A program made the translations under genes and the position numbers. A stretch of DNA of 64,000 nucleotides from NCBI GenBank assembly GCA_035625025.1, contig DASPQJ010000030.1, forward strand, positions 2,993 through 66,992. The letters are read 5' to 3'. Below are positions 38,692 to 60,271 of this stretch, in pieces; position 1 is the first letter of the stretch, and every line of letters starts with the position of its first letter. The DNA is from Acidimicrobiales bacterium. GTDB lineage: Bacteria; Actinomycetota; Acidimicrobiia; Acidimicrobiales; Bog-793. The notes under the pieces were generated by a model. It saw nothing but the letters and a program-made list of their open reading frames with translations. It had not been told where the DNA came from and made no database searches.

Positions 38692-40464
38692 GTGACCCTA
38701 CAGGCGAGTTTCGCGGCGACGCTCGTCGACGAGTGGGTGCGCGCCGGCATCGTCGACGCGGTCGTCGCGCCGGGGTCGCGTTCGAGCCCGCTGGCGGTCG
38801 CGCTCCTCGGCGACGAGCGGATCCGGGTCCACGTCCGGCTGGACGAACGGTCGGCGGGTTTCTTCGCGATCGGCCTCGCGCTCGTCTCGGCCCGTCCCGT
38901 CGTCGTCGTGGTGACGAGCGGGACCGCGACCGCCGAACTCCACCCGGCGGTCGTCGAGGCCGACCTTGCCGGAGTGCCGCTCCTCGTCTGCACGGCGGAT
39001 CGTCCCCCCGAACTGCGCCACGTCGGCGCGGCGCAGACGATCGACCAGCAGTATCTCTTTGGGCGCGCGGTGCGTTTCTTCGCCGATCCGGGAGTGCCCG
39101 ACGTCGACGGTCGTTGCCACTGGCGTAGCTTCGCGAGCCGGCTCGTCGCCGAGGCGACGGCCGGCCCCGGTGGGCCCGGTCCCGTGCACGCCAACCTGGC
39201 TTTCCGCGAGCCGCTCGGCGGCACACCCGACGACCTCCCGCCCGGCCGGCCGGAAGGTCGTCCCTGGCACGACGCGATCGGCCGGATCGACGTGCCCGAG
39301 GAGGCCGTGGAACGGCTCGTCGCCGAGGTCGGACCCACCCGGCGCGGCGTCATCGTCGCGGGTCGGGGGGCGGCCGAGGGGGACCCCGGGGGCGTCCTCG
39401 CCCTCGCCGCCGCCGCCGGCTGGCCGGCTCTCGCCGACACTCTGGCTTTCCCGCGCGCTCGCCAGACGGAAGTCGTGGCCGCGTGGGATCTCGTCGTGAA
39501 GAGCCAGGCGGCGCTGCGCGCCTTGCGACCCGAGTTCGTGCTGCGCGTCGGCGCGCCGCCGGCGAGCCGGGCGGTCGCGACCTGGCAGACCGCGCTCTGC
39601 GGCGCCGGGGCTTCGTCGGTCCTCGTCGATCCCCACGGACGCTTCGCCGACCCGGACCGGATCGCCGCAGTCGTGTTGCGGGCATCCCCGGGGGCGTTGT
39701 GCCGACGTGTCGCCGACGCGCTCGCCGGTCGGCCCGGAGGGCCCGAGGGATGGCTCGCGCGTTGGGAAAGGGCGGAGGCGGTGGCACAGGACGCGATCGA
39801 GGAGGTGCTCGGCGCGACGGACGAATTCAGCGAGCCGGCCGTGGCGCGGGGCCTTTTTGCCCGTCTGCCCGCCGAATCGACGCTCGTCGTCTCCTCGTCG
39901 ATGCCGATCCGCGACCTCGACGCCTTTGCCCGCCCGCGCGTCGGCGCGCCGACGGTCCTTGCCAACCGGGGGGCGAACGGGATCGACGGCGTCTTGTCGA
40001 CGGTGCTCGGCGCGGCCCGCGGCGCGTCCGCCGTCCGGTCCGGTTCCGGCGGGCGGACCTTCGGGCTGCTCGGCGACCTCGCCTTCTTCCACGACCTGCC
40101 CGCTCTGGTCCGGGGCCGGCACGAAGACGTCATCGACGCCACCGTCGTCGTCGTCGACAACGCCGGCGGGGGGATCTTCTCGTTCCTGCCGTACCCGAGG
40201 GACCTCGACGCCGGGCTTTTCGAGCGGGCCTTCGGGACCCCGCAGTCCCCGGACCTGTCGGGGGTGGCCGAGGCGCTCGGCTGTCGCGTGCACGGGGCAT
40301 CGTCGCCGGCCGAGTTCGCCGCGACGCTCGACGAGACGGCGTTCTGGCGCGGGGTTCAGCTCGTCGTCGTCCGCACCGACCGGGCCCGCAACGTCGCGGT
40401 CCACGCCGCGCTGGAAAGATCCGTCGTCGCGGCGGTCGACGGGGCGTGCGGGGAAGCTACCTAG
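38692..40464 (+). CDS. menD: 2-succinyl-5-enolpyruvyl-6-hydroxy-3-cyclohexene-1-carboxylate synthase
   Basis: FAATLVDEWVRAGIVDAVVAPGSRSSPL, TSGTATAELHPAV and NRGANGIDG..GDLAFFHD are ThDP-enzyme motifs of the MenD type. Confidence 0.9.
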   Translation: MTLQASFAATLVDEWVRAGIVDAVVAPGSRSSPLAVALLGDERIRVHVRLDERSAGFFAIGLALVSARPVVVVVTSGTATAELHPAVVEADLAGVPLLVCTADRPPELRHVGAAQTIDQQYLFGRAVRFFADPGVPDVDGRCHWRSFASRLVAEATAGPGGPGPVHANLAFREPLGGTPDDLPPGRPEGRPWHDAIGRIDVPEEAVERLVAEVGPTRRGVIVAGRGAAEGDPGGVLALAAAAGWPALADTLAFPRARQTEVVAAWDLVVKSQAALRALRPEFVLRVGAPPASRAVATWQTALCGAGASSVLVDPHGRFADPDRIAAVVLRASPGALCRRVADALAGRPGGPEGWLARWERAEAVAQDAIEEVLGATDEFSEPAVARGLFARLPAESTLVVSSSMPIRDLDAFARPRVGAPTVLANRGANGIDGVLSTVLGAARGASAVRSGSGGRTFGLLGDLAFFHDLPALVRGRHEDVIDATVVVVDNAGGGIFSFLPYPRDLDAGLFERAFGTPQSPDLSGVAEALGCRVHGASSPAEFAATLDETAFWRGVQLVVVRTDRARNVAVHAALERSVVAAVDGACGEAT

Positions 40465-41192
40465 TCGGGAAAGCGCCGGGCATCGGTCGCGGCGTAGCGG
40501 GCGACGCCCGCGTCGGTCGCGGCGGCGCGCTCGACCGCGCCGACGAGCTCGTCGAGGTCCGCGGCCGGGAGCGCGCAGGTCATCTCCTCGGGCGCCAGAC
40601 CTGTTCGGACCCGCGACAACGCGCAGCCGACGCTCGCCGCCGTCAGCCGCTGTTCCTTCGCGATCGCGACGATGTGGCACTGGGGCTTGCCGCCGATCAC
40701 GAGCCCGGGGATCGCGTCGGAGAGCACCATCAACTGGCGGCCGTTCACGCGGAGCAGCACGACGTCGGGGCGCACCCCGGGCGGGGTGGCCGCGAGAGGC
40801 CCGTAGGTGATGGCGCCCGGATGGCCCGAGACCACCGGCAGGCCGGCCGCTTCGGCGGCGGTCACCCAGCCCGATTCGAGGAGCGTGGCGACGTCAGCGT
40901 TACCCGCGACCTCGCCGAGCGTTGCCAAACCGTGCGTGACTCTTCCGACGCTGCAGTTGCCGTGGTCGGCGGGAACGGTCGTGAAGGTGCTCGTGGCGCC
41001 CCGGATCCAGAACACGCAGCCCGCCGGGACGCGCCCGGTCCTGCCGTCGGCCGTCGGCTCCGACATCGGGTCGTCGAAGGGGGCGACTCGGGGGGGCGGT
41101 TCGTCCGAGAACGAGATGGCGACGGGCGCGACCGCGAGGTGCAGGGCGCTCGTGAGCCGTTCGGCGAGCGCACCCCAGGAGGGTAGAGTCAT
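40461..41192 (-). CDS. DUF169 domain-containing protein
   Basis: 243 aa. The pattern AISFSDEPP..AGCVFWIRG..DHGNCSVG..GKPQCH resembles DUF169 as I remember it. Its stop overlaps the menD stop in the palindrome CTAG (40461-40464). Confidence 0.6.
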   Translation of the reverse strand: MTLPSWGALAERLTSALHLAVAPVAISFSDEPPPRVAPFDDPMSEPTADGRTGRVPAGCVFWIRGATSTFTTVPADHGNCSVGRVTHGLATLGEVAGNADVATLLESGWVTAAEAAGLPVVSGHPGAITYGPLAATPPGVRPDVVLLRVNGRQLMVLSDAIPGLVIGGKPQCHIVAIAKEQRLTAASVGCALSRVRTGLAPEEMTCALPAADLDELVGAVERAAATDAGVARYAATDARRFPD

Positions 41193-46107: not shown

Positions 46108-46729
46108 AGCTGGTCGCCGATCCGGCGAAAGCCGACCCGGGCGTAGCTGCGGGCGGCCGCCTCATCGCCGGGGGTGGGGGAGACGAGGTCGGAGCCGGCC
46201 GCGCCGGCCGACCGGGCGAGGGACACGGTGAGAGCCAAGGTGAGCTTGCGGCCGCGGAAGGCCTCGTCGACGGCGATGCCGGAGATCTCACCGAAACCGC
46301 CCCGCCGCCGGAGTATGTTCCGGCGCCGACGAAGCGACCCGTGGCAGCCTCGATGGTCGTCGCGACGAAACCGCCGACGGCGACGATCCGGGAGAGCGCG
46401 GCTCCGTCCGGCACGGCCGGATCGGCCTGACCGAACGCGGCGTGGGGCACCCGGGTCGGGCGACGAGTTCGTCGGGCGTCGCCGGCGGACGGATCGTGAA
46501 AGCGGCGTCGAGCCCGTCGGTGGCAGGGCGTCGGGGCTGGCCGCCAGGAGCGCGAGCACCACTTCCGCGAGGAAACTCGCTCTCGAGCGCGCTCCTTTTC
46601 GAGCGGGCCGAGCGCGGGGAAATACTCGGCGCGGACGACGCGATTCCGTCGAGGGAAGGCCGCGACGACCGTCGCCACAGCGTCGCCCGACGGCGACGCT
46701 CCGTCGTCGGGATCGCTTAGATGAGGCAA
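46044..46729 (-). pseudogene. GNAT-family N-acetyltransferase, apparently disrupted by four 1-nt frame changes
   Basis: Protein-like sequence with high third-position GC hops between frames. The segments are MPHLSDPDDG..AEYFPALGPLEKERARE, then SFLAEVVLALLAASPDALPP, then DGLDAAFTIRPPATPDELVA, then VPHAAFGQADPAVPDGAALSRIVAVGGFVATTIEAATGRFVGAGTYS, then GGFGEISGIAVDEAFRGRKLTLALT..AAARSYARVGFRRIG (acetyl-CoA site). Neither long ORF in the track (216 aa, 172 aa) contains the whole domain. Confidence 0.45.
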
Positions 46730-46873
46730 GGATCGGCGTCGCGCTCTGTGAAGGTGGCGAGGAACGGACCGACGCGTTCGACGGTGCGCATCTCGGCCGC
46801 AGTCGCCCGCACGCAGCCGGCGAGGCGCGCGAACCCGTCGTGGTCCACCGGCTCGCCTGGGGGTGCCGGTCGG

Positions 46874-47128
46874 TTACGTGGGCCCGTCGCCGGCGTCAGC
46901 TCGGCTCGTCGGAGACGGCCGCAAGTCGATCGTCAGGGTGAGGATTCCGTCGGCGAGGGCGGCCTCGGCGTCGCCGAGCATCGCAAAGTCCATGTAGTCG
47001 AGCTCCATCTGCTCGAGGAGGCGGCGACGTTCGGGGCCTTCGACGGGCGGCATCCCGCGCCGTCGGACCGCGGCGGCGCGCTCGCGAAAACGGACCACCA
47101 TCGCCCCGGGATCGAAGGTCTCGGGCAC
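46874..47128 (-). CDS. Hypothetical small protein (84 aa)
   Basis: Has an ATG start and high third-position GC throughout, with non-repetitive composition (MPETFDPGAMVVRFRERAAAV..LEQMELDYMDFAMLGDAEAALADGILTLTIDL). Confidence 0.5.
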   Translation of the reverse strand: MPETFDPGAMVVRFRERAAAVRRRGMPPVEGPERRRLLEQMELDYMDFAMLGDAEAALADGILTLTIDLRPSPTSRADAGDGPT

Positions 47129-47301
47129 GTTGCCAGGCTACCGGGGCGCGCCGCCCGTCGGCTTGGCGGATCCGGCCAGGACTCGGGCGGTATGCTGCAC
47201 TGCGCAGCAGGGTCCTGGGGCGGGCTCCGACGTGGTGCCGCTGCAGGGCGTCCCCGGGCAGCCGTGGTCGACGCGACCTCCTGCAAGCTAGGGAGCGGCT
47301 C

Positions 47302-47472
47302 GTGAAAAAGGGACGGCATCGGCGCTTCGAAGAGGCGCGCAGTCTGAAGCGTGCGGTCGAGGTCGTCGTGGAACCCTGCCCCGAGTGTGGCGCGCGTCCT
47401 GAAGAGGACCACGCCAGCTGGTGCCTTTACGAGTCCGAGGAACTCGAGGAAGACGTCGAGGACCTGACCTAG
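47302..47472 (+). CDS. Small ORF (56 aa) absent from the ORF track: basic N-terminus, C2HC zinc-knuckle-like centre, acidic tail
   Basis: The GTG at 47302 is preceded by GGGAGCGG. The translation is KKGRHRRFEEARSLKRAVEVVVEPCPECGARPEEDHASWCLYESEELEEDVEDLT-stop. GC-ending codons dominate. Its stop overlaps the convergent gene's stop in CTAG. Confidence 0.35.
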   Translation: MKKGRHRRFEEARSLKRAVEVVVEPCPECGARPEEDHASWCLYESEELEEDVEDLT

Positions 47473-48203
47473 CCGCTCGATCGCCGGACGACGGGATGCG
47501 GCAGGGGCGCCGATCTCCCGCCGCGCTCGTCGAGGTAGCTGGCGATCACCTTGTACACGGCCGGTCCGACGAGCGAGCTGAGCTCGTCGGCGAGGCTCAG
47601 GTAGACAGGCTGGGCCGAGACGAAGGCCTCGGGTGCCTCGGTGCACCACCAGTGGAACTCGTCGCCGGCCGGTCCCCAGTGGCGTCGTTCCCACTGTGTG
47701 ACCGTGGAGGTGACGTGGCCGGTCTCGTCGGTCGCGTCCTCACGGCGCACGGGGAGCTGCCAGCAGACGTCGGGCTTGTAAAGACGCGGGGGCACGCCCG
47801 CCTCGAGGGCAGCCCGGTGGAGGGCGCAGCCGGGGCCCCCGGGGAAGCCGGGCCGGTTGAGGAAGATGCAGGCCCCGTCGACGAGCCGCGTCGTGAGGTC
47901 CTCGCCCTGGCGCTTCACGATCCCGACGCGTCGCGCCCTTGTCATGTGCTGGAACTGGCTCGGGCTCAACCGCGCCGCGGCAGCCTCGACCCGCCGGACG
48001 TCTTTTTTGTCCGAGAGGTGGGCGCCGTAACTGCAGCAGCCCTCGGCGAGCTCGGCCGCCGGCCCGGTGAGGACCCCTTGGCAGCCCGCGTTGTAGATGC
48101 ACTTCCACGCGCTCGCCAGGAACGTGACGTCGAAAACCCACGTGCGGTCCTCTTCAGGATCGCCAAAGCTCACCCATTCGTGGGCGTCGTCGGGGACGGG
48201 CAC
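47469..48203 (-). CDS. Conserved Cys-rich hypothetical protein (8 Cys)
   Basis: WVSFGDPEEDRTWVFDVTFLASAWKCIYNAGCQGVL..GCCSYGAHL..DGACIFLNRPGFPGGPGCALH..KPDVCWQLPVRRE..HWWCTEAPEAF looks like a widespread actinobacterial hypothetical protein I have seen but cannot name. An alternative GTG start at 48173 would overlap the rSAM stop as GTGA. Confidence 0.75.
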   Translation of the reverse strand: MPVPDDAHEWVSFGDPEEDRTWVFDVTFLASAWKCIYNAGCQGVLTGPAAELAEGCCSYGAHLSDKKDVRRVEAAAARLSPSQFQHMTRARRVGIVKRQGEDLTTRLVDGACIFLNRPGFPGGPGCALHRAALEAGVPPRLYKPDVCWQLPVRREDATDETGHVTSTVTQWERRHWGPAGDEFHWWCTEAPEAFVSAQPVYLSLADELSSLVGPAVYKVIASYLDERGGRSAPLPHPVVRRSSG

Positions 48204-49645
48204 GAATCGAACGCTACCGGCGCCGACCCGGGGCCGGCGAGCTGATCACGTGTCGGCTCGGCGCAGCAGAACCACGGTTCGCTAAGACGCGGCCGGGCTC
48301 CGGCGGGGCCGCGCGGGACGACGGGCTTCGGCGGTCCGGGGTCCCGCCGGCCGAGGCGGTCGAACACGATCTCGCGTACTGCGGCGTAGGTCGTCTCGAC
48401 CGGCTCCGCCGTTGTGGCGGCGGTCTCGCAGCGTCCGGCGAGCGCCGTTTGCAGTTCGTCGAGGATCGGGTCGTCGGCCGACCAGCGGTAACCGAGGGAG
48501 CGGACGTCGAGCTCGCCGAGGCAGCGGGTGAGCACGGCGTCGTCTGAGTCCAGAACGAGGGAACCCGGCGGGATGAGGAGGCGGATGGAGTACTGGACCG
48601 GATCGACGTTCGCCACGAGGTCGTGCGCCGCGACGAAATCGACGATGTCGACCACGTCCTGGCGGTTCGTCCAAGGCGTGAACGGGAGGAACGACGGTCG
48701 GATCTCCACGCCGCAGCGGCGCAACTCGACGACGGCGCGGCTGGCGTCCGCCGCGCTGTGGCCCTTTTGCAGGCGACGCAGCACGGCGTCGTTCGTCGAT
48801 TCGAAGGCCGAGACGACGAATAGAAGGCCGAGCCTCGCGAGTTCGGCGACGACGTCGCGGTGGCGCAGGAGATGCGAGACCTTGATCGTCGCGTCGAAGG
48901 TGATCTCGCGGTGCGCGGCGTGCATCTCGCGCACGACGGCGAGGGCGTGGGTGGGACGGTTGAGGAAGTCGGGGTCGGCGAAGCGCACGTGCCCGGCGCC
49001 GGCGGCGACGAGCGCGTCGATGTCGGCGAGGACTGCGTCGGTCGCGACGAGGCGTGATCGCCCGCCGTAGACGACGGGAACCGGGCAGTGCCGGCAGCGG
49101 TGGTTGCAACCCTCGCTGGCTTCGACGGTCCCGACGAGGCTCTCCCCGTCGGCGGTGAGGAGACGCGCGTAGGCCTCGAGACCCGGTAGGTCGGCGCGAC
49201 GCGGGAGCACGCCCGCCGAGCCCTTGGCGTCCCGCGCCCGGCCGAGGGCGACGACCGGCGCTGTCTCAGCGTCGGCCGGAGCTTCTCCGTCGAGCCAGTC
49301 GGCGAGCGAGGCCCCGACGTCGCCGGCCACCGCGAGGTCGCCTTGTCGCAGTGCCCCGGCCGCCGCCGCCACGGGCGCGTACAGGCCGTAGAGCGCGACC
49401 GGCGCCTCGGGGCGTGTCTCGTGCAGCCGGTCGACCGCCGCCAGCGCGAGACGCAGGGCGGTGTGCATCGGGACGGAGAGGGCGACGGCCTGGGCCCAGG
49501 CGACATCGGCGGCCGGCCACGGTTCGACGGACAGGTCCGCGCTGCGGACCTCATGGCCGGCGGCGCAAAGCTCGGCCGCGGGCCAGGCCAGCCCGAGCGG
49601 TTGCGCGCCGAGCTCGTAGGACGACAGGAGCAGGACCCGGCTCAC
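48170..49645 (-). CDS. Radical SAM protein with N-terminal B12-binding-like domain and C-terminal CCAEP motif (CUAEP/CCAEP-tail family)
   Basis: The N-terminus is Rossmann-like (RVLLLSSYELGAQPLGL). The CX3CX2C motif EGCNHRCRHC lies at 49085-49108. The C-terminal PWFCCAEP lies at 48254-48268, with both Cys encoded by TGC. The GTG start overlaps the ATP-grasp stop (GTGA at 49642-49645). Confidence 0.85.
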   Translation of the reverse strand: MSRVLLLSSYELGAQPLGLAWPAAELCAAGHEVRSADLSVEPWPAADVAWAQAVALSVPMHTALRLALAAVDRLHETRPEAPVALYGLYAPVAAAAGALRQGDLAVAGDVGASLADWLDGEAPADAETAPVVALGRARDAKGSAGVLPRRADLPGLEAYARLLTADGESLVGTVEASEGCNHRCRHCPVPVVYGGRSRLVATDAVLADIDALVAAGAGHVRFADPDFLNRPTHALAVVREMHAAHREITFDATIKVSHLLRHRDVVAELARLGLLFVVSAFESTNDAVLRRLQKGHSAADASRAVVELRRCGVEIRPSFLPFTPWTNRQDVVDIVDFVAAHDLVANVDPVQYSIRLLIPPGSLVLDSDDAVLTRCLGELDVRSLGYRWSADDPILDELQTALAGRCETAATTAEPVETTYAAVREIVFDRLGRRDPGPPKPVVPRGPAGARPRLSEPWFCCAEPTRDQLAGPGSAPVAFDSCPSPTTPTNG

Positions 49646-50919
49646 CCGCTCGCTCCGGAGGCGACCTCGGCGTCGACGCGCACGGCGAGCGCGGCGAAGC
49701 CGCTTCGCAGGGCGGCCTCGACCTGTTCGGGGAGCGCGGCCCGGGCGAACAAGAACCCTAGGTAGCGGTCGCCGGCCGGCCACGCCGTGAGCGTCCCGCC
49801 GACCGGGACGGTCACCTCGATTCCCCACACTCCCGGTACCGCGAGCGCGGCTTGCGATCCGTCGATCCCGGCGAAGCGGCCTGAGGCGGGGATGGGGAGC
49901 ATCATCACGCCGGACGCACCTCGCAGGCGGGCGTTCGCCACCTCGTAGTCGAGACCGAGGGCGTGGGCGAGCACGATCTCCTCGAGCGAACGGCCAGAAG
50001 AGAAGTGCAGCGCCCGGGAGCACCGCCCGCCGATCGTGCGCGCCGCGACCTCGATGACGACGACCTCCGCCTCAGGATGCGTTCCCCGCGGCGACAAGCG
50101 CGCTTCGGCGTGGACCGGACCGTCGACGAGGCTGAGCGCCGCACAGGCCGACGCCACCGTGGCGTGCAGCGCTTCCTGGAGGTATTCGGGATGACGGGAG
50201 GGCGTGACGTAGATCGTCTCCTCGAAGTATGGGCCCTCGAGCGGGTCGGGTTTGTCGAAGACGGCGAGCACGTCGAGGCGACCAGCGGAAAGGAGCCCTT
50301 CGACGGCGACCTCGTCGCCGGCGACGAACTCCTCGACGAGGAGCGGCTCCTCGGCGGGCCGCCCCGCGTCGCAGCTGATGCGGCGCGCGGCCACCGCCGC
50401 GGCCCGTGCCCCGCCGTCGTCGTCGGCGCGGATCACGCCGCGGCTGGCAGAGAGCGAGCACGGTTTCACGACGACCGGGTAGCCGAGGTGGGCGCCGGCG
50501 GCGGCGACCGCCGCGGACTCGCCGGCACCGGCCCCGACGATCTCGAAACGCGGTTGGCGGACACCGGCGTTGTGCAAAAACTGTCGCATCACCGACTTGT
50601 CCCGGGTCGCGGCGACCGCGGCAAACGGGTTCTTGGCGAGACCGAGCCGTTCGGCGGCGGCGGTCGCAACGAGCGCTCCGGCGTCGTCGACGGCGAGGAC
50701 CGCGTCGAACGGCGTCACCGAGTGCCGCGTGGCCACCGCGTCCGCCGCGGCCGCGGGGTCGTCGAGGGGCAGGACGAGGAATCTGTCCGGTGTCGTGCCG
50801 GCCATCGCCTGGGGGGCGTCCGATCCCGTCACGACGTCGACGCCGAGCCGCCCGGCGGCGACGAGGAAATCAGTGGCGCGGTACGTCGACGACGGCAGGA
50901 CGAGAAGGACTCGGGCCAT
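49642..50919 (-). CDS. ATP-grasp domain protein, L-amino-acid-ligase-like
   Basis: It starts MARVLLVLPSSTYRATDF, carries the ATP-grasp core RDKSVMRQFL..LGYPVVVKPCSLSASRGVIRADD..LLVEEFVAGDEVAVEGL, and has a C-terminal GDRYLGFLFA. The ATG is at 50919. The remaining 245 aa of the track ORF are shadow over the nfu gene. Confidence 0.85.
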   Translation of the reverse strand: MARVLLVLPSSTYRATDFLVAAGRLGVDVVTGSDAPQAMAGTTPDRFLVLPLDDPAAAADAVATRHSVTPFDAVLAVDDAGALVATAAAERLGLAKNPFAAVAATRDKSVMRQFLHNAGVRQPRFEIVGAGAGESAAVAAAGAHLGYPVVVKPCSLSASRGVIRADDDGGARAAAVAARRISCDAGRPAEEPLLVEEFVAGDEVAVEGLLSAGRLDVLAVFDKPDPLEGPYFEETIYVTPSRHPEYLQEALHATVASACAALSLVDGPVHAEARLSPRGTHPEAEVVVIEVAARTIGGRCSRALHFSSGRSLEEIVLAHALGLDYEVANARLRGASGVMMLPIPASGRFAGIDGSQAALAVPGVWGIEVTVPVGGTLTAWPAGDRYLGFLFARAALPEQVEAALRSGFAALAVRVDAEVASGASG

Positions 50920-50997
50920 GCCCCCATCATGCCGGTGTGTCGCCGCTCGCCAGCGCGGCGCGCTCGTCAGTTCGGGTGTCGCCCCTACCATGGCGGC

Positions 50998-51642
50998 ATG
51001 GCCGACGAGGCGCTCGACCGACCGGGCCCCGACCCGGTGCTCGCCGTCACCGACGCCGCTCGGGCCACGATCCTCGAGGCCCGCGCGGCCGAGAAGGATC
51101 CGGAGAGCCTGGCGCTCTTCGTCGAGGTGACCGGGTCGACAAACGGCGCCTACGTCTACGAGATGTGGTTCGAGGCGCTCGCCGACGCCGCGCCGCGTGA
51201 TGTTCTGTGCCGCAACGACGAGCTCACCGTCGTCGTCGGTGGTGACAGCGTCGACAAGGTGCGGGGCGCGTCGCTCGCTCTCGGCGAAGAGGGACTTGTC
51301 ATGCTGAACCCGAACACGCCGCCCGTCGCGCCCGCCGCGGCCGCGATTCCCGAGGGCGACATGACGAGCCCGCTCGCCCGCTCGGTGATCGCCGTTCTCG
51401 AAGAGCAGGTCAACCCGCAGATCGCCTTTCATGGCGGTCGGGCGGACCTCGTCGCCGTCGACGAGGGAGTCGCCTACCTCCGACTCTCCGGCGGTTGCCA
51501 GGGTTGTGGACTCGCGGCCGTGACGCTCGGCCAGGGGATCACGCTCGCGATCAGACAGGCGGTGCCCGAGATCGTCGATGTCGTCGACGTCACCTCGCAC
51601 CAGGACGGCCGCAACCCTTACTTCGAGCCGGCGAAGAAGTAG
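50998..51642 (+). CDS. NfuA-like Fe-S cluster carrier (degenerate IscA/HesB-like N-domain plus Nfu C-domain)
   Basis: The C-terminal VNPQIAFHGGRADLVAV..GVAYLRLSGGCQGCG is the Nfu CxxC motif. The N-terminal half resembles the Cys-less A-type domain of NfuA. The ATG is at 50998. Confidence 0.85.
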   Translation: MADEALDRPGPDPVLAVTDAARATILEARAAEKDPESLALFVEVTGSTNGAYVYEMWFEALADAAPRDVLCRNDELTVVVGGDSVDKVRGASLALGEEGLVMLNPNTPPVAPAAAAIPEGDMTSPLARSVIAVLEEQVNPQIAFHGGRADLVAVDEGVAYLRLSGGCQGCGLAAVTLGQGITLAIRQAVPEIVDVVDVTSHQDGRNPYFEPAKK

Positions 51643-51647
51643 CGACG

Positions 51648-51679
51648 CGTCTCGCATCTCGGCTCGGGAAGGCGAGACG
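51648..51679 (+). terminator. Hairpin CGTCTCGC-N16-GCGAGACG between nfu and aroC (possible terminator)
   Basis: An 8-bp perfect stem read directly from the sequence, starting 6 nt after the nfu stop. There is no U-tract, which is common in high-GC actinobacteria but leaves the call weak. Confidence 0.3.
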
Positions 51680-51692
51680 GTAGATTGCAGCG

Positions 51693-52901
51693 ATGCTCCG
51701 TTTTTTGACGGCCGGGGAATCCCACGGTCGTGCGCTCGTCGTGATCGTCGAGGGCTTGCCCGCCGGGTTGCCGATCACGATCGACGAGATCCGTGTCGAG
51801 CTCGCCCGGCGGCGGCTCGGCTACGGGCGGGGACCGCGCATGCGCGTGGAACGCGACGAAATCGTCGTTGTGAGCGGCGTGCGGCACGGCCGGACGCTCG
51901 GCTCGCCTGTCGCGATCGAGATCGCCAACACCGAATGGCCGAAATGGGAGCGGGAGATGTCGCCCGAGCCCGGCGAACCGGAGAGGATCCTCACGGCGCC
52001 GCGTCCGGGCCACGCGGACTTGGCCGGGATGGAGAAGTACGGATTCGTCGACGCCCGCGACGTGCTCGAAAGGGCTTCGGCCCGCGAGACGGCGGCGCGT
52101 GTCGCGGCGGGCGCGCTTGCCAAGGCGCTCCTCGCGCGGCTCGGCACCGAGATCGTGAGCCACGTCGTCGCGATCGGCGCCGCGACGTCACCTTCGGGCC
52201 TGCGGCCACGTCCCGAGGATCTCGCGGCCGTCGACGCCTCCGCGGTCCGCTGCTTCGACGCGGCCGCGACCGACGCGATGGTCGCCGAGGTCAAGGCCGC
52301 CGCGCAGCAGGGGGACTCGCTCGGAGGCGTTGCCGAGGTCGTCGCTTACGGCGTCCCGGTCGGCCTCGGCAGCTACGTCCAGTGGGACCGCCGGCTCGAC
52401 GGGCTGATCGCGCAGGCGCTGATGAGCATCCCGGCGGTGAAAGCCGTCGAGGTGGGCGACGCGATCGCGATCGCGAGCCGCCGGGGTTCCGAAGCGCACG
52501 ACGCGATCTTCTGGGACGCGTCCCGCTTGACGTACCGCCGCGAGACGAGCCGTGCCGGCGGGATCGAAGGCGGAGTCTCGACGGGCGGTCTCGTGATCGC
52601 CCGGGCGGTGATGAAGCCGCTCGCGACGTTGAACCGCCCGGTGCTGGCGACCGTGGACGTCGTGACGAAGAAAAGCACGCTCTCGTTCAAGGAACGCACC
52701 GACGTCACGGCCGTTCCGGCGATGGGGGTCATCGCCGAGGCGATGGTCGCGTTCGTGCTCGCCTCTGAGGCGCTCCGCAAGTTCGGCGGCGATTCTGTCG
52801 CCGAGTTCGTCCGTAATCGGGACAGCTTCGTCGCGGCACTCGGCTCGGCCCCGTCCGCCGCCGAACCGCCAGGCACCGCCGCGAGATCAGGCCAAAGGTG
52901 A
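51693..52901 (+). CDS. aroC: Chorismate synthase
   Basis: MLRFLTAGESHGRALVVIVEGLPAGL, RPGHADL and SARETAARVAAGA are canonical AroC motifs. Confidence 0.95.
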   Translation: MLRFLTAGESHGRALVVIVEGLPAGLPITIDEIRVELARRRLGYGRGPRMRVERDEIVVVSGVRHGRTLGSPVAIEIANTEWPKWEREMSPEPGEPERILTAPRPGHADLAGMEKYGFVDARDVLERASARETAARVAAGALAKALLARLGTEIVSHVVAIGAATSPSGLRPRPEDLAAVDASAVRCFDAAATDAMVAEVKAAAQQGDSLGGVAEVVAYGVPVGLGSYVQWDRRLDGLIAQALMSIPAVKAVEVGDAIAIASRRGSEAHDAIFWDASRLTYRRETSRAGGIEGGVSTGGLVIARAVMKPLATLNRPVLATVDVVTKKSTLSFKERTDVTAVPAMGVIAEAMVAFVLASEALRKFGGDSVAEFVRNRDSFVAALGSAPSAAEPPGTAARSGQR

Positions 52902-54493
52902 TGGCGACCGCCCCGCGCAACCGCTGTCACGTCCTGCTCGTCGGGATGATGGGGACCGGCAAGTCCTCCGCCGGTCTGGAGCTCGCCGCGCGGCTCGGCC
53001 GACCGTTCATCGACACGGACGAGGAGATCGCCGCGACCACAGGGAGGACGATCGCGGAGATCTGGTCGGCCGAGGGCGAGGCGAAGGTGCGCGCCGTCGA
53101 GTCGACGGTCCTTTCCGAGGCGCTCGCCTCGTCCTCCCCGTCGGTTATCGCCGTCGGCGGCGGCGCGGTCCTCGACCCGGCCAACCGTGCCGCGATCTCC
53201 GAGGCGGGAGACGTCGTCTGGTTGCGCGCCCAGGCCCACACGCTCGCGCAGCGACTCGGTGACGGCGCCGGCCGACCGCTGCTCGAGGCGGACCCCGTCG
53301 GGGCGCTGGCGCGGATCGAGCTGGAGCGTCGGGTGCTCTACGAGGAGGTGGCCGATGTGGCCGTCGACGTCGACGCGCTGGAGCCTGACGCGACAGTCGC
53401 CGCCGTGCTCGGCGCGCTGCAGCGCCGGGTCGTCGTCGCGGTTCCGAACCATCCCTACGAGGTCGTCGTCGGACCCGGGGCACGACACCTGCTCGGCGTG
53501 GTCATCCCGGCGGGAGCGGCGCGCGTCGCCATTGTCAGGCAAGCGGGCGTGAATGTCGCGGTCACGACCGGCGGCGACGAGGTCGAGTTCACGGTCGGCG
53601 CCGGGGAGTGGGCGAAGTCGCTCGCCACGGTCGAGAAGTTGTGTCGGGAGTTCGCCCGAGCCGGGCTGACCCGAGCGGACGTCGTCGTCGCCGTCGGCGG
53701 CGGAGTCGTCACCGATGTCGCCGGTTTTGCGGCGGCCTGCTACCACCGGGGCGTCGCCGTCATCCACGTGCCGACGACGTTGCTCGGCCAGGTGGACGCC
53801 GCCATCGGTGGCAAGACCGGCGTCAACCTGCCCGAGGGCAAGAACCTCGTCGGGTCGTTCTGGCAGCCGAGTTGCGTGCTCTGTGACACGGACACGCTGT
53901 GGTCGCTACCCGAGCGCGAGTGGCATTCGGGGTTTGGCGAGATGGCCAAGTACGAGTGTTCCGGCCTCACCGATCTCGGTGGGCTCTCGCTCGTCGACCA
54001 GATCGCGTCGTGCGTCGCGGCGAAGGCGGCGGTCGTCGCGATCGACGAGCGCGACGCAGACCGCAGGATGGTCCTCAACTACGGCCACACGCTTGCCCAC
54101 GCGCTCGAGGCGACGGGTTTCTCCTCGTCCGGCGGCGGCGAGTCTTCGATCCGGCACGGCGAGGCCGTCGCAATCGGACTCGTCTTCGCGGCGCGATTGG
54201 CAGCCGCGCTCGGTCGGATCAGTGCCGCGGATGTCGAGCGTCACGTCGCCGTCGTCGAGCGCTACGGGCTTCCCTTTTCGATCCCCGCTGGAGTCGACCT
54301 CGACGAGCTGACGGTCTTCATGGCCCGTGACAAGAAGACGCGGACCGGGCTGAGCTTCGTCCTCGGCGGTCCCCGCGGTGTCGAGTTCGTGCCCGACGTC
54401 GACCCCGAAGCCGTCCGCGTCGCCCTCGTCGCGACGCAGGCCGTCAGGAGCGAAAAGGGCGCGTCGCGCCAAGCCAAAGCGAGGACCGCGTGA
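52898..54493 (+). CDS. aroKB: Bifunctional shikimate kinase / 3-dehydroquinate synthase (single 531-aa ORF)
   Basis: The N-terminal ~175 aa carry Walker A LVGMMGTGKSS, FIDTDEEI and GGGAV (AroK). The remaining ~355 aa carry VAVGGGVVTDVAGFAAA, GGKTGVN and NYGHTLAHALE (AroB). There is no stop codon between the two parts. Confidence 0.85.
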   Translation: MMATAPRNRCHVLLVGMMGTGKSSAGLELAARLGRPFIDTDEEIAATTGRTIAEIWSAEGEAKVRAVESTVLSEALASSSPSVIAVGGGAVLDPANRAAISEAGDVVWLRAQAHTLAQRLGDGAGRPLLEADPVGALARIELERRVLYEEVADVAVDVDALEPDATVAAVLGALQRRVVVAVPNHPYEVVVGPGARHLLGVVIPAGAARVAIVRQAGVNVAVTTGGDEVEFTVGAGEWAKSLATVEKLCREFARAGLTRADVVVAVGGGVVTDVAGFAAACYHRGVAVIHVPTTLLGQVDAAIGGKTGVNLPEGKNLVGSFWQPSCVLCDTDTLWSLPEREWHSGFGEMAKYECSGLTDLGGLSLVDQIASCVAAKAAVVAIDERDADRRMVLNYGHTLAHALEATGFSSSGGGESSIRHGEAVAIGLVFAARLAAALGRISAADVERHVAVVERYGLPFSIPAGVDLDELTVFMARDKKTRTGLSFVLGGPRGVEFVPDVDPEAVRVALVATQAVRSEKGASRQAKARTA

Positions 54494-56638: not shown

Positions 56639-57056
56639 GGAGCGGCCGTCGTCAACCGGCGCGCGCCGGCGCGCCCGCGAGCGGGCGCTCGACCTGCTCT
56701 ACGAAGCCGAGGCCAAGGGCCTTTCCCCGGACGCCGTCCTCGACGGGCTCCCGGTCGTGCCCGAGGCGTACGCCGCGGCGCTCGTCCGCGGGGTCGGGGC
56801 CCATCTCGACGCCATCGACGCCGTCATCGCCTCCCACGCCACGGCGTGGGAGGTGAGCCGCCTGCCGGCGATCGACCGCCAACTGCTGCGGATCGCGACC
56901 TTCGAGCTCATCTTCGGCGGCGAGGTCCCGCTGGCGGTGGCGATCGACGAGGCCGTCGAGCTCGCCCAGGATTTCTCGACCGCGGAATCCGGCCGGTACG
57001 TGAACGGCGTGCTCGCCGCGATCGCCGCCGAGCTTCCGCCGACCGCGGCGTCGTGA
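56616..57056 (+). CDS. nusB: Transcription antitermination factor NusB
   Basis: RERALDLLYEAEAKG, the IDRQLLRIATFELIF motif and AVELAQDFSTAESGRYVNGVL are present. The only in-frame start candidate near the domain is GTG at 56616, which overlaps efp by 23 nt. Confidence 0.85.
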   Translation: MSTSRGRRERPSSTGARRRARERALDLLYEAEAKGLSPDAVLDGLPVVPEAYAAALVRGVGAHLDAIDAVIASHATAWEVSRLPAIDRQLLRIATFELIFGGEVPLAVAIDEAVELAQDFSTAESGRYVNGVLAAIAAELPPTAAS

Positions 57057-58153
57057 GCAGGCGCGACCCTTACGCCGCGGCCGGCGTCGACTACGGCACC
57101 CTCGACGCCGCCAAGCGCCTGGCGGTCACGGCCGCCCGCTCGACGTCGTCGTACGCCGCCCCCCGCGGCGCGACGATCGAGGAGCGAAGCCGCGGCGAGC
57201 CGGCGACGGTCGTCCGATCAAACGGCGCGACCTACGGGTTCGTCCTCGAGTGCCTCGGCACGAAGTCGCTCGTGGCGCGCGATTTCGAGGCGGCGACGGG
57301 GATCGACCGGTTCGAGGCGATCGGCTACGACACCGTCGCCGCGGCGGTGAACGACTGTTGTTGCGTCGGCGCCCTGCCACTCGTCGTCAACGCCTACTTC
57401 GCGACCGGCGCGGCGTCTTGGTACTCGGGGACTCGGCATGCCTCGCTCGTCGACGGTTTCGCCCGAGCCTGCCGCGACGCCGGCGCCGCCTGGGGCGGCG
57501 GCGAGTCCCCGACGCTGGCGGGACTCGTCGCGCCGGACGGGATCGACCTCGCGGCGGCCGTCGTCGGTCGGGTGCCGAGGGGGGTCGAACCGATGCTCGG
57601 CGCGGCGCTCCGTGCCGGCGACGAGATCGTGCTCGTCGCGTCGAGCGGTCTCCACCAGAACGGGGCCTCGCTCGTGCGTGCCGTGGCGGCCCGGCTCGAT
57701 CTCGGGCTCGCGACACCACTGCCGTCTGGTCGACTGTTCGGTGACGCGGCGCTCGACGCGGGCCTGATCTACGTCGGTTTCGTCGCCCGCTTGCTCGCCG
57801 AGGGCGTGGCGGTGCACTACCTCAGCCACGTCACTGGACACGGGCTGCGCAAGCTGATGCGAGCCGACCGGGATTTCACCTACCGGATCGAGAGGCTTCT
57901 TTCGGTTCCGGAGGTGCTCGGGTTCGTCGCCGAGCGGGCGGGATTGTCGAGCGCCGAGGCCTACGCGACTCTCAACATGGGCGCCGGGTTGGCCTGCTTC
58001 GTCGCGCCGGGATCGGGCGCCCGCGTCGTTGCGCTCGCCGGCGAGTTCGGCCTCGCCGCCCTCGTCGCCGGACAGGTGGAGTCGGGTCCGCGCCGGGTCG
58101 TCGTCGGCCCGATCGGCGTCGAGTACGCGAGCGGCGAGCTCGAACTGCGTTGA
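57053..58153 (+). CDS. AIR synthase-related (PurM-like fold) protein of unknown function
   Basis: AAGVDYGTLDAAK.., GYDTVAAAVNDCCCVGALPL, GGGESPTL and SSGLHQNGASL resemble the PurM/ThiL/SelD/HypE superfamily but not PurM itself. The GTG overlaps the nusB stop (GTGA at 57053-57056). Confidence 0.7.
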   Translation: MSRRDPYAAAGVDYGTLDAAKRLAVTAARSTSSYAAPRGATIEERSRGEPATVVRSNGATYGFVLECLGTKSLVARDFEAATGIDRFEAIGYDTVAAAVNDCCCVGALPLVVNAYFATGAASWYSGTRHASLVDGFARACRDAGAAWGGGESPTLAGLVAPDGIDLAAAVVGRVPRGVEPMLGAALRAGDEIVLVASSGLHQNGASLVRAVAARLDLGLATPLPSGRLFGDAALDAGLIYVGFVARLLAEGVAVHYLSHVTGHGLRKLMRADRDFTYRIERLLSVPEVLGFVAERAGLSSAEAYATLNMGAGLACFVAPGSGARVVALAGEFGLAALVAGQVESGPRRVVVGPIGVEYASGELELR

Positions 58154-58187: not shown

Positions 58188-59018
58188 TCACGGTTTGCGG
58201 GCCCGGATGAAGGCACTCATCGCGGCACCGTCGAGCTCGGCGATCGTCGCCGCGACATCGAATCCGTCGGGGAGCGATTCTGCAGCAGACATCTCCTCGG
58301 CCAGGCTGCTCAGACGGCTGCGGTCGTAGACGTCGGTCGGCTCAATGTCGATCTCGCGAAAGCCGGCGACCTCGAGCTCCCCGCGGTAGTCGGCCTGGGA
58401 CAATGCGCCGGCGATGCAACCGGTCCAGAGCCCGACCACCCGCTGCAATGGCGGGGCGAGCGTCCGGCGCAGGACGACGTCCGAAATAGCCAGGCGGCCG
58501 CCCGGGCGGAGGACGCGGAACGCCTCGCGGAACACGGCGGGCTTGTCAGCGGACAGGTTGACGACGCAGTTGGAGATGATCACGTCGACCGACTCGTCAA
58601 GTAGGGGAACGGCCTCGATCGTGCCCTCTAGGAACTCGGCGTTTTCGACGCCCGCCTCGGTTTGGTTCCGCCGCGCCAGGGTCAGCATCTCCGGCGTCAT
58701 ATCGAGGCCGTAGGCCTTGCCGGTCGGGGCGACTCGGCGCGCGGACAAGAGCACGTCTATCCCGCCGCCGGATCCGAGATCGAGGACGACCTCGCCGGGA
58801 TGGAGATCCGCGAGCAAGGTCGGGTTGCCGCAACCGAGTGACGCGGCGAGGGTCCCTTCGGGCAGCAACTTCGCGTCCTCGTCGCTATAGAGAGTGGGGC
58901 CAAAGACACTTTCCGGCGCGCTCGTCCGTCCGCAACACGATGTCTCCGTCTCCTGAGCCGCGTTGGCGTAACGCACGCGCACCGCGTCCCTGATCTTGTC
59001 CGCTTCCGGGTTTGTCAT
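58188..59018 (-). CDS. arsM: Arsenite S-adenosylmethionine methyltransferase
   Basis: The N-terminus is [14 protein letters not shown]. Also present are GCGNP, motif [26 protein letters not shown], and a conserved downstream Cys (WTGCIAGAL). The ATG is at 59018. Confidence 0.8.
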
Positions 59019-59081
59019 TTCAGCTTCCCTGGGTCCGCGAACCGGCCCGGTCGTGTGGCCAACGGCCGCGAGCCCCACGCC

Positions 59082-59486
59082 TCAAGGCAGGAGTTCTGCG
59101 ACGAGGGCTCGCACGCGGGCGTCGATCTCGTCGCGGATCGGGCGGACCTCGTTGAGTTGGCGCCCCGCGGGGTCGTCGAGCTCCCAATCCAGATAGCGCT
59201 TGCCTGGAAAGACGGGGCAGGTGTCCCCGCAACCCATCGTGATGACGACGTCGGCGTCTTCGGCAAGCTCGTTCGTCAGCAGTTTCGGTCTTTTGGAGGC
59301 GATGTCGATACCGATCTCGCGCATCGCCTCGACGACAGCCGGATTCAACCGGTCCGCCGGTTCGGAACCAGCCGAGCGAATCGTCATCCGGCCTCGGGCG
59401 TGTCGGGCGAGCAGCGCGGCGGCCATCTGCGATCGGCCGGCGTTGTGGACGCAGACGAACAGGACTTCCGGCTTCTCCTGGCTCAC
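59082..59486 (-). CDS. arsC: Arsenate reductase, thioredoxin-coupled LMW-PTPase type
   Basis: VLFVCVHNAGRSQMA is the CX5R P-loop, and ITMGCGDTCP carries the Cys pair. The GTG overlaps the aquaporin stop (GTGA at 59483-59486). Confidence 0.9.
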   Translation of the reverse strand: MSQEKPEVLFVCVHNAGRSQMAAALLARHARGRMTIRSAGSEPADRLNPAVVEAMREIGIDIASKRPKLLTNELAEDADVVITMGCGDTCPVFPGKRYLDWELDDPAGRQLNEVRPIRDEIDARVRALVAELLP

Positions 59487-60271
59487 GCGGCCTCCTCTTG
59501 GGCGACGACGACATGGCGAGCGCTGCGGCGGATCTGCGGGTAGAGCACGGCGACGCAGCTCGCCCCGAAGGCGCCACCGATCAGTTCGAAACCCATGAAC
59601 GGGACGACCGAGCCCGGCGCGATGCCGGCGAAGCTGTTCGAGCACATCCGGCCGAGGGCGACCGCGGGGTTGGCGAAGCTCGTCGAGGACGTGAACCAGT
59701 ACGCGGCGGCGATGTAGGCGCCGACGGCGAAAGGTGCGAGGTGAGAACGGCCGGAGCCAGCAAGGCCGAACACGATGAGGACGAGGCCGAACGTCGCGAT
59801 CACCTCCGCGAGGAGATGTGGCCCGCTCGCGCGATGACGGGTCGACAGGGAAATGACGGCGTCTCCGAACATCGTGTTGGCTGCGATTGCTCCGGTGACG
59901 CCGCCGGCGAACTGCGCCACGACGTAGGTGAGGGCGTCCTTGGTGGACGTGGTGCCGAAGAAGCGATCGACGAGGGTGATCACCGGATTGAGATGAGCTC
60001 CGGACACCGGACCGACCGCGAAGATGATCGCGGCGAGCGCGCCGGCCGTCGCCAGGGTGTTCTCGAGGAGTTCGATCCCGACGTCGTCTGGCGATAGACG
60101 TGCGGCGGCGATGCCCGAGCCGATGATTGCGGCGACGAGAAAGGCTGTTCCGACGAACTCCGCGAGAGCCTTGCGGCTCCGGATGCCCTGTCCAGCCGGA
60201 GGCGCTCCTCCGGCGCGCCCCGTCCCGCCGACTCGATTCGGCCAGCCCGACTCGGGCTGCCGTCGCCCCAT
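59483..60271 (-). CDS. MIP-family aquaglyceroporin (AqpS-like, probable arsenite channel)
   Basis: EFVGTAFLV, SGAHLNPVITL (first NPx box, NPV) and FANPAVALGR (second NPA box) are present. The ATG at 60271 is preferred over 60301, because the longer version would run through the promoter palindrome. Confidence 0.85.
   Translation of the reverse strand: MGRRQPESGWPNRVGGTGRAGGAPPAGQGIRSRKALAEFVGTAFLVAAIIGSGIAAARLSPDDVGIELLENTLATAGALAAIIFAVGPVSGAHLNPVITLVDRFFGTTSTKDALTYVVAQFAGGVTGAIAANTMFGDAVISLSTRHRASGPHLLAEVIATFGLVLIVFGLAGSGRSHLAPFAVGAYIAAAYWFTSSTSFANPAVALGRMCSNSFAGIAPGSVVPFMGFELIGGAFGASCVAVLYPQIRRSARHVVVAQEEAA

Follow-up and report, generated by a model that had tools for sequence, protein, structure and literature searches.

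ArsL, in the papers that describe it the sole canonical radical S-adenosylmethionine (SAM) enzyme known to cleave SAM on the 'wrong' side, cuts the C-gamma-S bond, which gives methylthioadenosine, and places the aminocarboxypropyl group, by way of an aminocarboxypropyl radical or an Fe-C species, onto As(III) on its C-terminal cysteines; this cysteine tail is needed to bind As(III) (bioRxiv 10.1101/2024.02.01.577332; 10.64898/2026.04.29.721666). The most active ArsL variant carries an engineered two-cysteine 'MCCA' tail (PMC13598754), and a CC pair is therefore enough to present the substrate atom. Another radical SAM family, NF040546 (rSAM_CUAEP), has been called uncharacterised (Haft 2022 preprint), and beyond Haft's one-sentence mention the searchable literature gave us no account of what its members do or which genes surround them. 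Here we describe a locus with a member of this family in a 64,000-nucleotide stretch of DNA from an Acidimicrobiales bacterium (GenBank assembly GCA_035625025.1, contig DASPQJ010000030.1), which we refer to as the window and whose coordinates are used throughout. The gene of the radical SAM enzyme is accompanied by the genes of an ATP-grasp ligase and of an Nfu-type iron-sulfur (Fe-S) carrier. No paper describing such a ligase/radical SAM/Nfu module was found in the searchable literature.

As read from the sequence, positions 47469-50919 of the minus strand are occupied by three real genes joined by overlaps, and nfu lies divergently upstream. The region has a GC content of 72% and the closest matches to the locus are metagenome-assembled genomes (MAGs) labelled Acidimicrobiales or Acidimicrobiaceae. 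Its features are:

50998 to 51642, plus strand: Nfu-type Fe-S cluster carrier, 214 amino acids (Pfam NifU, 66 bits)
50920 to 50997: divergent intergenic region between nfu and the ATP-grasp gene, 78 nucleotides (coordinates read from the sequence)
49642 to 50919, minus strand: L-amino-acid-ligase-type ATP-grasp enzyme, 425 amino acids (ATG at 50919, TGA at 49644-49642)
49642 to 49645, minus strand: GTGA stop/start overlap of the ATP-grasp and radical SAM genes, 4 nucleotides (read from the sequence)
48170 to 49645, minus strand: CCAEP-tail radical SAM enzyme, 491 amino acids (GTG at 49645, TGA at 48172-48170)
49085 to 49108, minus strand: CxxxCxxC motif with C180, C184 and C187, ligands of the [4Fe-4S] radical SAM cluster (from the alignment)
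48254 to 48268, minus strand: CCAEP tail motif, C460, C461, A, E and P (from the alignment)
47469 to 48203, minus strand: gene 3, putative DUF3109/Rv0495c-family protein, 244 amino acids, eight invariant cysteines (from homologue annotation)
48170 to 48203, minus strand: overlap of 34 nucleotides between the 3' end of the radical SAM gene and the start of gene 3 (start set by homologue alignment)

The CCAEP-tail radical SAM enzyme and its relation to ArsL

The radical SAM enzyme is a full-length member of NF040546. Its score is 505 bits (cutoff 500), residues 4-470 match positions 1-467 of the 468 model positions, all motifs of the family are present and we found no difference that would set it apart. 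A Rossmann-like N-terminal domain is followed by the radical SAM core and a C-terminal domain with the CC motif. Among 24 aligned family members C180-x3-C184-x2-C187 is invariant, and it is likewise kept in comparison with ArsL and with the homologue from Thermomicrobium roseum. The WFCCAEP motif occupies residues 458-464; C460 is invariant in the same 24 members and C461 nearly so, and these two are the only conserved cysteines outside CxxxCxxC. An earlier sequence-only reading of this DNA had placed the enzyme in a CUAEP/CCAEP-tail family with no assigned reaction, which the NF040546 match and Haft's description of the family bear out.

The same reading had called the N-terminal domain B12-like, and this is doubtful. 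The Pfam B12-binding model (Pfam: PF02310) reaches 25.2 bits and stays below its threshold of 32.1. The AlphaFold2 model of the enzyme has a predicted local distance difference test (pLDDT) score of 88.3, with about 74-86 in the CCAEP stretch and less than 50 in residues 472-491, which are predicted to be disordered. A Foldseek search with this model returned AprD4 as the top match and then OxsB, MgmA, TsrM, MiaB and RimO, with MiaB, MtaB and RimO at ranks 11-21. AprD4 and ArsL homologues are reported to possess a Rossmann-like domain and to bind no cobalamin (2026 review, PMC12931638). With a sub-threshold PF02310 score and a cobalamin-free AprD4 as top fold match, cobalamin dependence is not supported, and the B12-like look is probably a resemblance of fold only. 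MiaB-like NCBIfam models score 20-28 bits on the sequence, and a search of PDB sequences with a profile of the enzyme gave distant class B and methylthiotransferase matches only, and no ArsL structure.

The second NCBIfam match of the enzyme is ArsL itself (NF040542), with 240 bits over model positions 1-408, short of the cutoff of 450. The enzyme is 31% identical to ArsL of Pseudomonas amygdali over residues 3-398, with the cluster motif aligned and the cysteine tail at the same end, and in a gapped alignment the CC of ArsL's terminal RCCLKC shares columns with the CCAEP motif. Judged by these alignments, ArsL is the nearest characterised relative and represents a sister family; it is the only mechanistic lead, and the sequence-only reading had missed it. 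Common to both enzymes are the Rossmann-like N-terminal domain, the CxxxCxxC core and the C-terminal Cys-Cys tail, and both families are reported or predicted to do without cobalamin. They differ in the tail, which is RCCLKC with three As(III)-binding cysteines in ArsL and CCAEP with two cysteines (selenocysteine in some members) here. They also differ in their neighbours: the window enzyme has no arsQ or arsM next door, and its partners are the ATP-grasp ligase and Nfu.

Gene linkage around the radical SAM enzyme

The ATP-grasp enzyme exceeds the gathering scores of ATP-grasp_4 (Pfam: PF13535; 84 bits), ATPgrasp_N (Pfam: PF18130; 39.8 bits) and LAL_C2 (Pfam: PF18603; 39.8 bits). Its best relative in the PDB is the L-amino acid ligase (LAL) BL00235 (PDB: 3VOT; E 3e-32), which it matches full-length over residues 21-405, with BacD next; the likeness to LALs that had been proposed from the letters alone is therewith well supported. 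The enzyme shares with BL00235, BacD/YwfE and DdaF the three-domain layout with LAL-specific N- and C-terminal domains and the conserved ATP-grasp motifs. In 15 orthologues there is no variation at K152, E196, E203, H270, E272, R274, E290 and R294 of the ATP-grasp motif, nor in a family-specific FDKPDPxxGPxFEE block. Unlike these ligases, it lies far below every named LAL model (BacD, 39.9 bits against a cutoff of 850; DdaF, 32.7 against 840) and belongs to a separate, large orthologous group annotated just as 'biotin carboxylase' or 'ATP-grasp domain protein'. None of the NCBIfam families, housekeeping enzymes included, scored above its cutoff, and in this sense there is no full-length match to a characterised housekeeping enzyme. 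By its domains the protein is of the LAL class, though it corresponds to none of the characterised members, and amino-acid ligation is its predicted activity.

The GTGA overlap at 49645-49642 is best read as translational coupling of the ATP-grasp and radical SAM genes. A GGAG lies about 10 nucleotides 5' of the GTG at 49645, and the N-terminus defined by this codon agrees with those of 23 homologues in the alignment; for each of the genes there are thousands of homologues, whose N-termini align with the chosen ones. The nfu gene starts with ATG at 50998, 78 nucleotides away from the ATP-grasp start, and the gap presumably holds a shared promoter or regulatory region. A sigma-70 consensus scan, which is uninformative for an actinobacterium of 72% GC, found no promoter-like site in 46700-51800, including 50920-50997, and terminator-like sites at chance level only. 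Three same-strand genes chained by stop/start overlaps and an Nfu-like gene diverging 78 nucleotides away had been described by the sequence-only reading; the coordinates and the distance hold, and every motif that it quoted was found in the sequence (VVVKPCSLSASRGV, GDRYLGF, CNHRCRHC and PWFCCAEP, as well as CxxxxxC and CC in gene 3).

For the gene context we used a motif-guided scan with one genome per species, which gave at least 588 confirmed stretches, and analysed the best 80, with Cys-form motifs only. Their best segment identity to the window enzyme is 44-75%, and their MAG labels comprise Acidimicrobiales and related groups, Solirubrobacterales/Thermoleophilia, Chloroflexota and unclassified Actinomycetota. 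Counts of ATP-grasp and Nfu genes were taken from tblastn; the open reading frame (ORF) caller was crude, and a GC3-based version of it ran the ATP-grasp ORF together with the antisense strand of nfu. An ATP-grasp gene lies immediately upstream of the radical SAM gene and on the same strand in 60 out of the 70 loci with at least 1.4 kb of upstream flank. It is found on the same strand 0.4-7 kb off in four more, inverted and 3 kb off in one, and is absent in five. The distance from the ATP-grasp stop to the radical SAM start is between -18 and +141 nucleotides in 63 of the 66 adjacent pairs, with 12 overlapping. This adjacency is far beyond chance, and the arrangement is kept in most of the related soil-bacterial genomes sampled. 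Seen from the ATP-grasp side, a radical SAM gene adjoins in every case sampled; in one frameshift-ridden assembly (L209) no radical SAM gene was called. The five loci without ATP-grasp have no neighbour theme in common (alpha/beta hydrolase, AceE, transporters, aldehyde dehydrogenase).

Of 68 Cys-form loci, 62 have the divergent Nfu gene. Its product consists of a NifU C-terminal domain with CxxC (Pfam: PF01106, 66 bits) and a degenerate A-type N-terminal domain; against TIGR03341 (NfuA) it reaches 79.6 bits, below the cutoff of 269, and the NifU domain alone is securely recognised. The core module is Nfu, ATP-grasp and radical SAM enzyme, and not the trio of ATP-grasp, radical SAM enzyme and gene 3. 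This core is chromosomal and vertically kept, with a divergent nfu facing the translationally coupled pair. Where Nfu had earlier been mentioned in passing, its presence was right and its role as a core partner was understated.

Besides the core genes, some neighbours recur in part of the loci. A DUF169 gene was detected in the flank of 27 of the 74 loci with a called radical SAM gene, often beside nfu or right after the radical SAM gene; the window has one 6.3 kb downstream of the module:

40461 to 41192, minus strand: DUF169 protein, 243 amino acids, with conserved cysteine (Pfam DUF169, 52.4 bits)

A protein of 121 amino acids, matched by NF040913 'SaoD/DsrE family protein' with 194 bits, is encoded convergently with the radical SAM gene in 13 loci of the Solirubrobacterales type. 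In one locus (L207, 1-10870) the module stands amid genes for an ApbC/Mrp-like carrier, a class V aminotransferase (cysteine-desulfurase-like), DUF169, endonuclease III, NifU and aconitase. Beside the core pair there is no conserved small ORF. Just one recurs at all, which encodes 84 amino acids (46874-47128, minus strand), lies downstream of gene 3, has no family match and occupies the same position in 8 close loci. A reading as a graspetide or other ribosomally made peptide with post-translational modification (RiPP) was rejected, with no conserved precursor ORF beside the enzymes and a ligase of the LAL type.

The homologue from T. roseum, 39.5% identical to the window enzyme, is encoded on a megaplasmid (NC_011961, 796591-798027; L083 10330-10440). 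Its annotated coding sequence ends at WFC, after which come TGA and an in-frame AEPLEDPSG, which makes it probable that the annotation cuts short a selenoprotein. The gene is flanked by those of a pyridoxal 5'-phosphate (PLP) aminotransferase and an MFS transporter, with a GNAT protein two genes past the latter, and tblastn with the ATP-grasp enzyme matched nothing among the plasmids searched, so that the megaplasmid carries no ligase gene. The aminotransferase and the MFS transporter were dismissed as general partners; they are absent from the 80 Cys-form genome loci.

Further selenocysteine-form loci came from a scan of metagenome contigs for WFC-TGA-AEP, with at least 120 stretches found and 80 analysed, which have uneven flanks and no taxonomy. 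Their radical SAM enzymes are 34-49% identical to that of the window. An orthologue of the ATP-grasp enzyme (40-56% identity) is encoded downstream in 17 of the 39 loci with at least 2 kb of downstream flank; the co-occurrence of ligase and radical SAM enzyme that the pathway idea of the sequence-only reading called for is thus seen here too, in another gene order. Of all 80 loci, 15 have the ATP-grasp gene in convergent orientation, 8 have it downstream on the same strand and 1 has it upstream; same-strand copies often come after a gene for a NifU-domain protein of 93 amino acids. Nfu was found in 9 and DUF169 in 5 of the same 39 loci. Directly upstream of the radical SAM gene and on the same strand, 16 of about 45 loci have YggX (Fe(II)-trafficking, Pfam: PF04362; for example L094, L095, L128, L133, L139 and L164), which is absent from all Cys-form loci surveyed and from the window. 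The linkage of radical SAM enzyme, ATP-grasp and Nfu survives both the change of gene order and the switch between cysteine and selenocysteine, which argues for a functional link.

Gene 3 had no match in Pfam or NCBIfam, even at E 10 for PF11307 (gathering score 33.5 bits), and its family is assigned via homologues only. Those that are 60-86% identical carry a precomputed PF11307 annotation (DUF3109, now Rv0495c), listed for all 120 close homologues; in our local copy of the model two of them also stay below the cutoff (P0208, 27.3 bits; P0140, 17.5 bits). The protein would accordingly be a distant member of the DUF3109/Rv0495c family, with which it has the eight invariant cysteines in common and from which it differs in lying under the Pfam threshold and in its link to the radical SAM gene, confined to one lineage. 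All eight cysteines are invariant in an alignment of 14 homologues. The AlphaFold2 model from 14 sequences has a pLDDT of 57, with the cysteine-bearing segments below 50, as might be expected if a metal or cluster were needed for folding. Loss of Rv0495c in Mycobacterium tuberculosis raises reactive oxygen species and iron sensitivity and disturbs the redox balance (bioRxiv 10.1101/2023.08.22.554105). The family is widespread and is seen in unrelated context too, and gene 3 follows the radical SAM gene in only 9 of 70 Cys-form loci, all of them from the closest Acidimicrobiales relatives with a shared aro-pepQ-efp-nusB block. It is a lineage-specific neighbour, an add-on of one Acidimicrobiales lineage and not a core component, and the earlier idea of the cysteine-rich protein as partner or likely substrate of the pair is not supported by these counts.

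Two in-frame GTG codons are candidate starts of gene 3, one at 48203, with an overlap of 34 nucleotides, and one at 48173, with a GTGA overlap, and both had been offered as the link of the last gene pair. The invariant E9 and W10 fall upstream of the GTG at 48173, which rules out this start, and the N-termini of the 14 aligned homologues fit the longer form, M-x-x-P-x-D-A-H-E-W; the true start is therefore 48203 and the overlap of 34 nucleotides is correct. An overlap of about 31-34 nucleotides recurs in close relatives (L001, L003, L082 and L208). Beyond CCAEP the radical SAM enzyme continues with residues 472-491, for which disorder is predicted, yet the closest relatives keep their sequence, PVAFDxCPSPTTPTxG; the probable reason is that this DNA also specifies, in a second reading frame, the conserved N-terminus of gene 3.

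Proposed function and rival explanations

From its sequences the module appears as an ArsL-like radical SAM pathway with a ligase and an Fe-S carrier. We tentatively propose, at clearly less than an even chance, that the radical SAM enzyme uses the aminocarboxypropyl group of SAM to alkylate a soft atom that its CC tail holds, that the ligase couples the product to an amino acid and that Nfu services the cluster. The [4Fe-4S] cluster would cleave SAM at the C-gamma-S bond, as in ArsL, and SAM's 3-amino-3-carboxypropyl group would be joined to a soft nucleophilic atom on the vicinal Cys-Cys (or Cys-Sec) pair of the tail. This atom would most likely be sulfur or selenium and less likely a metalloid such as As(III), because the theme of the neighbours is iron and sulfur (Nfu, YggX, SaoD/DsrE-like, DUF169 and Rv0495c-like proteins). 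The product would be an amino acid outside the proteinogenic set, akin to homocysteine or arsinothricin; the ATP-grasp enzyme would activate a carboxylate as an acyl phosphate and couple this amino acid to a second one or to an amine. Nfu, or YggX in other lineages, would supply or rebuild the radical SAM cluster, and the DUF169, SaoD/DsrE-like and Rv0495c-like proteins may be alternative cysteine-rich helpers that deliver the atom or electrons. The family memberships, the overlaps and the linkage of the genes are shown directly; where SAM is cut, which atom is carried, what the ligase takes as substrates and what the helpers do we infer by homology and from the surrounding genes. The PLP aminotransferase and MFS transporter beside the T. 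roseum gene provide a small-molecule context. According to Haft, a CU motif hints at contact with a heavy atom, and relatives of SaoD that are not part of the SAO system adjoin metal-uptake genes; on these remarks a metal(loid) reading keeps some probability.

Several points weigh against this proposal. The NF040546 score is barely above the cutoff, by a margin of 5 bits, and the function proposed for the family is a prediction from homology. An identity of 31% to ArsL does not fix where SAM is cut, and the usual 5'-deoxyadenosyl radical may be formed instead. The tail has two cysteines against three in ArsL, and with a pLDDT of about 74-86 it is not predicted to be a free arm. Ordinary metabolism would seem to make a homocysteine-like product superfluous, and the idea that the ligase acts second finds no support in the order of the genes, where it comes first. 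Moreover, the two enzymes are not coupled by necessity, since no ATP-grasp gene lies nearby in T. roseum and in roughly half of the loci with selenocysteine.

A bolder form of the proposal, to which we give only a small chance, is that the CCAEP/CUAEP family is a second canonical-fold radical SAM family using the aminocarboxypropyl half of SAM, which would form a C-S or C-Se (not C-As) bond on the tail atom. Together with the ligase it would make a new low-molecular-weight thiol or selenol dipeptide, working with Nfu and YggX in Fe-S homeostasis in Acidimicrobiia, Thermoleophilia, Chloroflexota and other lineages. No low-molecular-weight thiol is known to be established for such lineages.

The window also contains an arsenic cluster at 58188-59983 on the minus strand, 7.3 kb from the module, with nfu-aro-pepQ-efp-nusB-purM-like genes in between:

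58188 to 59018, minus strand: ArsM arsenite methyltransferase (NF008823, 260.6 bits on an N-truncated call)
59082 to 59486, minus strand: ArsC-like reductase of the low-molecular-weight protein tyrosine phosphatase type
59483 to 59983 or longer, minus strand: MIP-family channel

The same arrangement, with HTH_5, LMWPc and methyltransferase, is syntenic in the relative L208, and a methyltransferase lies at the cut end of L209. An ArsM cluster near the module is confined to this lineage, with synteny in at least one close relative.

Four other explanations have to be weighed against the aminocarboxypropyl transfer. In the first, the enzyme would use an ordinary 5'-deoxyadenosyl radical for an Fe-S-dependent insertion of sulfur (or selenium), the sacrificial donor being a cluster or persulfide that Nfu or a SaoD/DsrE-like protein brings in, and would thiolate the substrate or product of the ATP-grasp enzyme. 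LipA, MiaB and RimO use a sacrificial auxiliary cluster that is rebuilt by NfuA; like them, the window enzyme is tied genetically to an Nfu-type carrier, which is its most constant neighbour, and MiaB and RimO, with MtaB, are among its moderate structural neighbours. The YggX genes of 16 selenocysteine-form loci, the SaoD/DsrE-family proteins of 13 loci and the ApbC-like, class V aminotransferase and aconitase neighbours in L207 fit this explanation as well. However, the window enzyme lacks the three-cysteine auxiliary-cluster motif of LipA, MiaB and RimO, to which its sequence similarity is weak; just two conserved cysteines beyond the radical SAM motif are too few for a normal auxiliary cluster. 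Its closest characterised enzyme by sequence is ArsL and no methylthiotransferase, and Nfu may be a mere maturation factor of an unusually labile enzyme; we regard sulfur insertion as rather unlikely. A second route, which seems quite improbable, leads to an organoarsenical 'Trojan-horse' peptide: As(III) or methylarsenite on the CC pair would be turned into an arsinothricin-like amino acid, which the ligase would hide in a dipeptide, just as BacD, DdaF and the like hide other antimetabolites. ArsL as nearest characterised relative speaks for it, as do the arsenic cluster in the window with its counterparts in L208 and L209, the weak NCBIfam matches of the ligase to BacD and DdaF, and the MFS and GNAT genes of T. 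roseum; in addition, the ArsL variant with two cysteines is at its best when methylarsenate is reduced in situ (PMC13598754). Yet no ars gene recurs in the flanks of the 160 surveyed loci, where the sole match is a weak methyltransferase-like one in L063, eight housekeeping genes separate the ars genes from the module, and no exporter or resistance acetyltransferase is conserved. Furthermore, the module stands in housekeeping synteny (aro, efp, nusB) with Fe-S proteins and not in a mobile or variable biosynthetic island.

The pair could also modify a protein or ribosomal peptide, such as the Rv0495c-like protein, Nfu or an unseen precursor, without any free small molecule. Dph2, the other aminocarboxypropyl-radical enzyme, acts on a protein, radical SAM/ATP-grasp pairs are frequent in RiPP clusters, and the overlap of gene 3 with the radical SAM gene is kept in close relatives; but gene 3 is missing from 61 of the 70 loci, the 84-amino-acid ORF is limited to its 8 close loci and does not follow the core pair, and the ligase has the N- and C-terminal LAL domains typical of free-amino-acid ligases and not those of the graspetide type. 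We hold protein modification to be highly improbable. Mere adjacency of neighbours without a common function deserves hardly any credence. Overlapping stop and start codons are common in high-GC actinobacterial genomes and may reflect no more than a compact operon style, and gene 3 is an example of a gene that is coupled here and yet is no constant partner; against this, the association of ATP-grasp, radical SAM enzyme and Nfu holds across phylum-level MAG labels and in rearranged orders around both Cys-form and selenocysteine-form enzymes.

Other genes of the window and significance of the module

A second radical SAM gene lies at 22055-23182 on the minus strand. Its product belongs to the radical SAM/SPASM family TIGR04053 (439.5 bits, cutoff 395) and has the heme b synthase AhbD among its relatives; an F420-hydrogenase-beta-like Fe-S protein is encoded nearby (20084-21211, plus strand). 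After nusB, an AIRS/AIRS_C protein is encoded at 57053-58153 on the plus strand, which reaches 142 bits with the PurM model (cutoff 236) and is syntenic in 7 related loci; an identity as SelD was considered and rejected in favour of a PurM-like paralogue. Shikimate kinase and 3-dehydroquinate synthase are apparently fused (aroK-aroB) in an ORF of 531 amino acids at 52898-54493 on the plus strand, and the same fusion occurs in L082, L205 and L208.

ArsL has a sister family that is much more widespread, with at least 588 stretches in species-representative genomes for the Cys-form motif alone. In its gene context the NF040546 family, selenocysteine variants included, goes with an amino-acid ligase and with proteins of iron-sulfur or iron trafficking, and not with arsenic genes. 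The working model of the locus is corrected accordingly, with Nfu inside the module and the cysteine-rich gene outside. An orphan family thereby becomes a testable two-enzyme system, which may make a new metabolite in abundant, poorly cultured soil bacteria.

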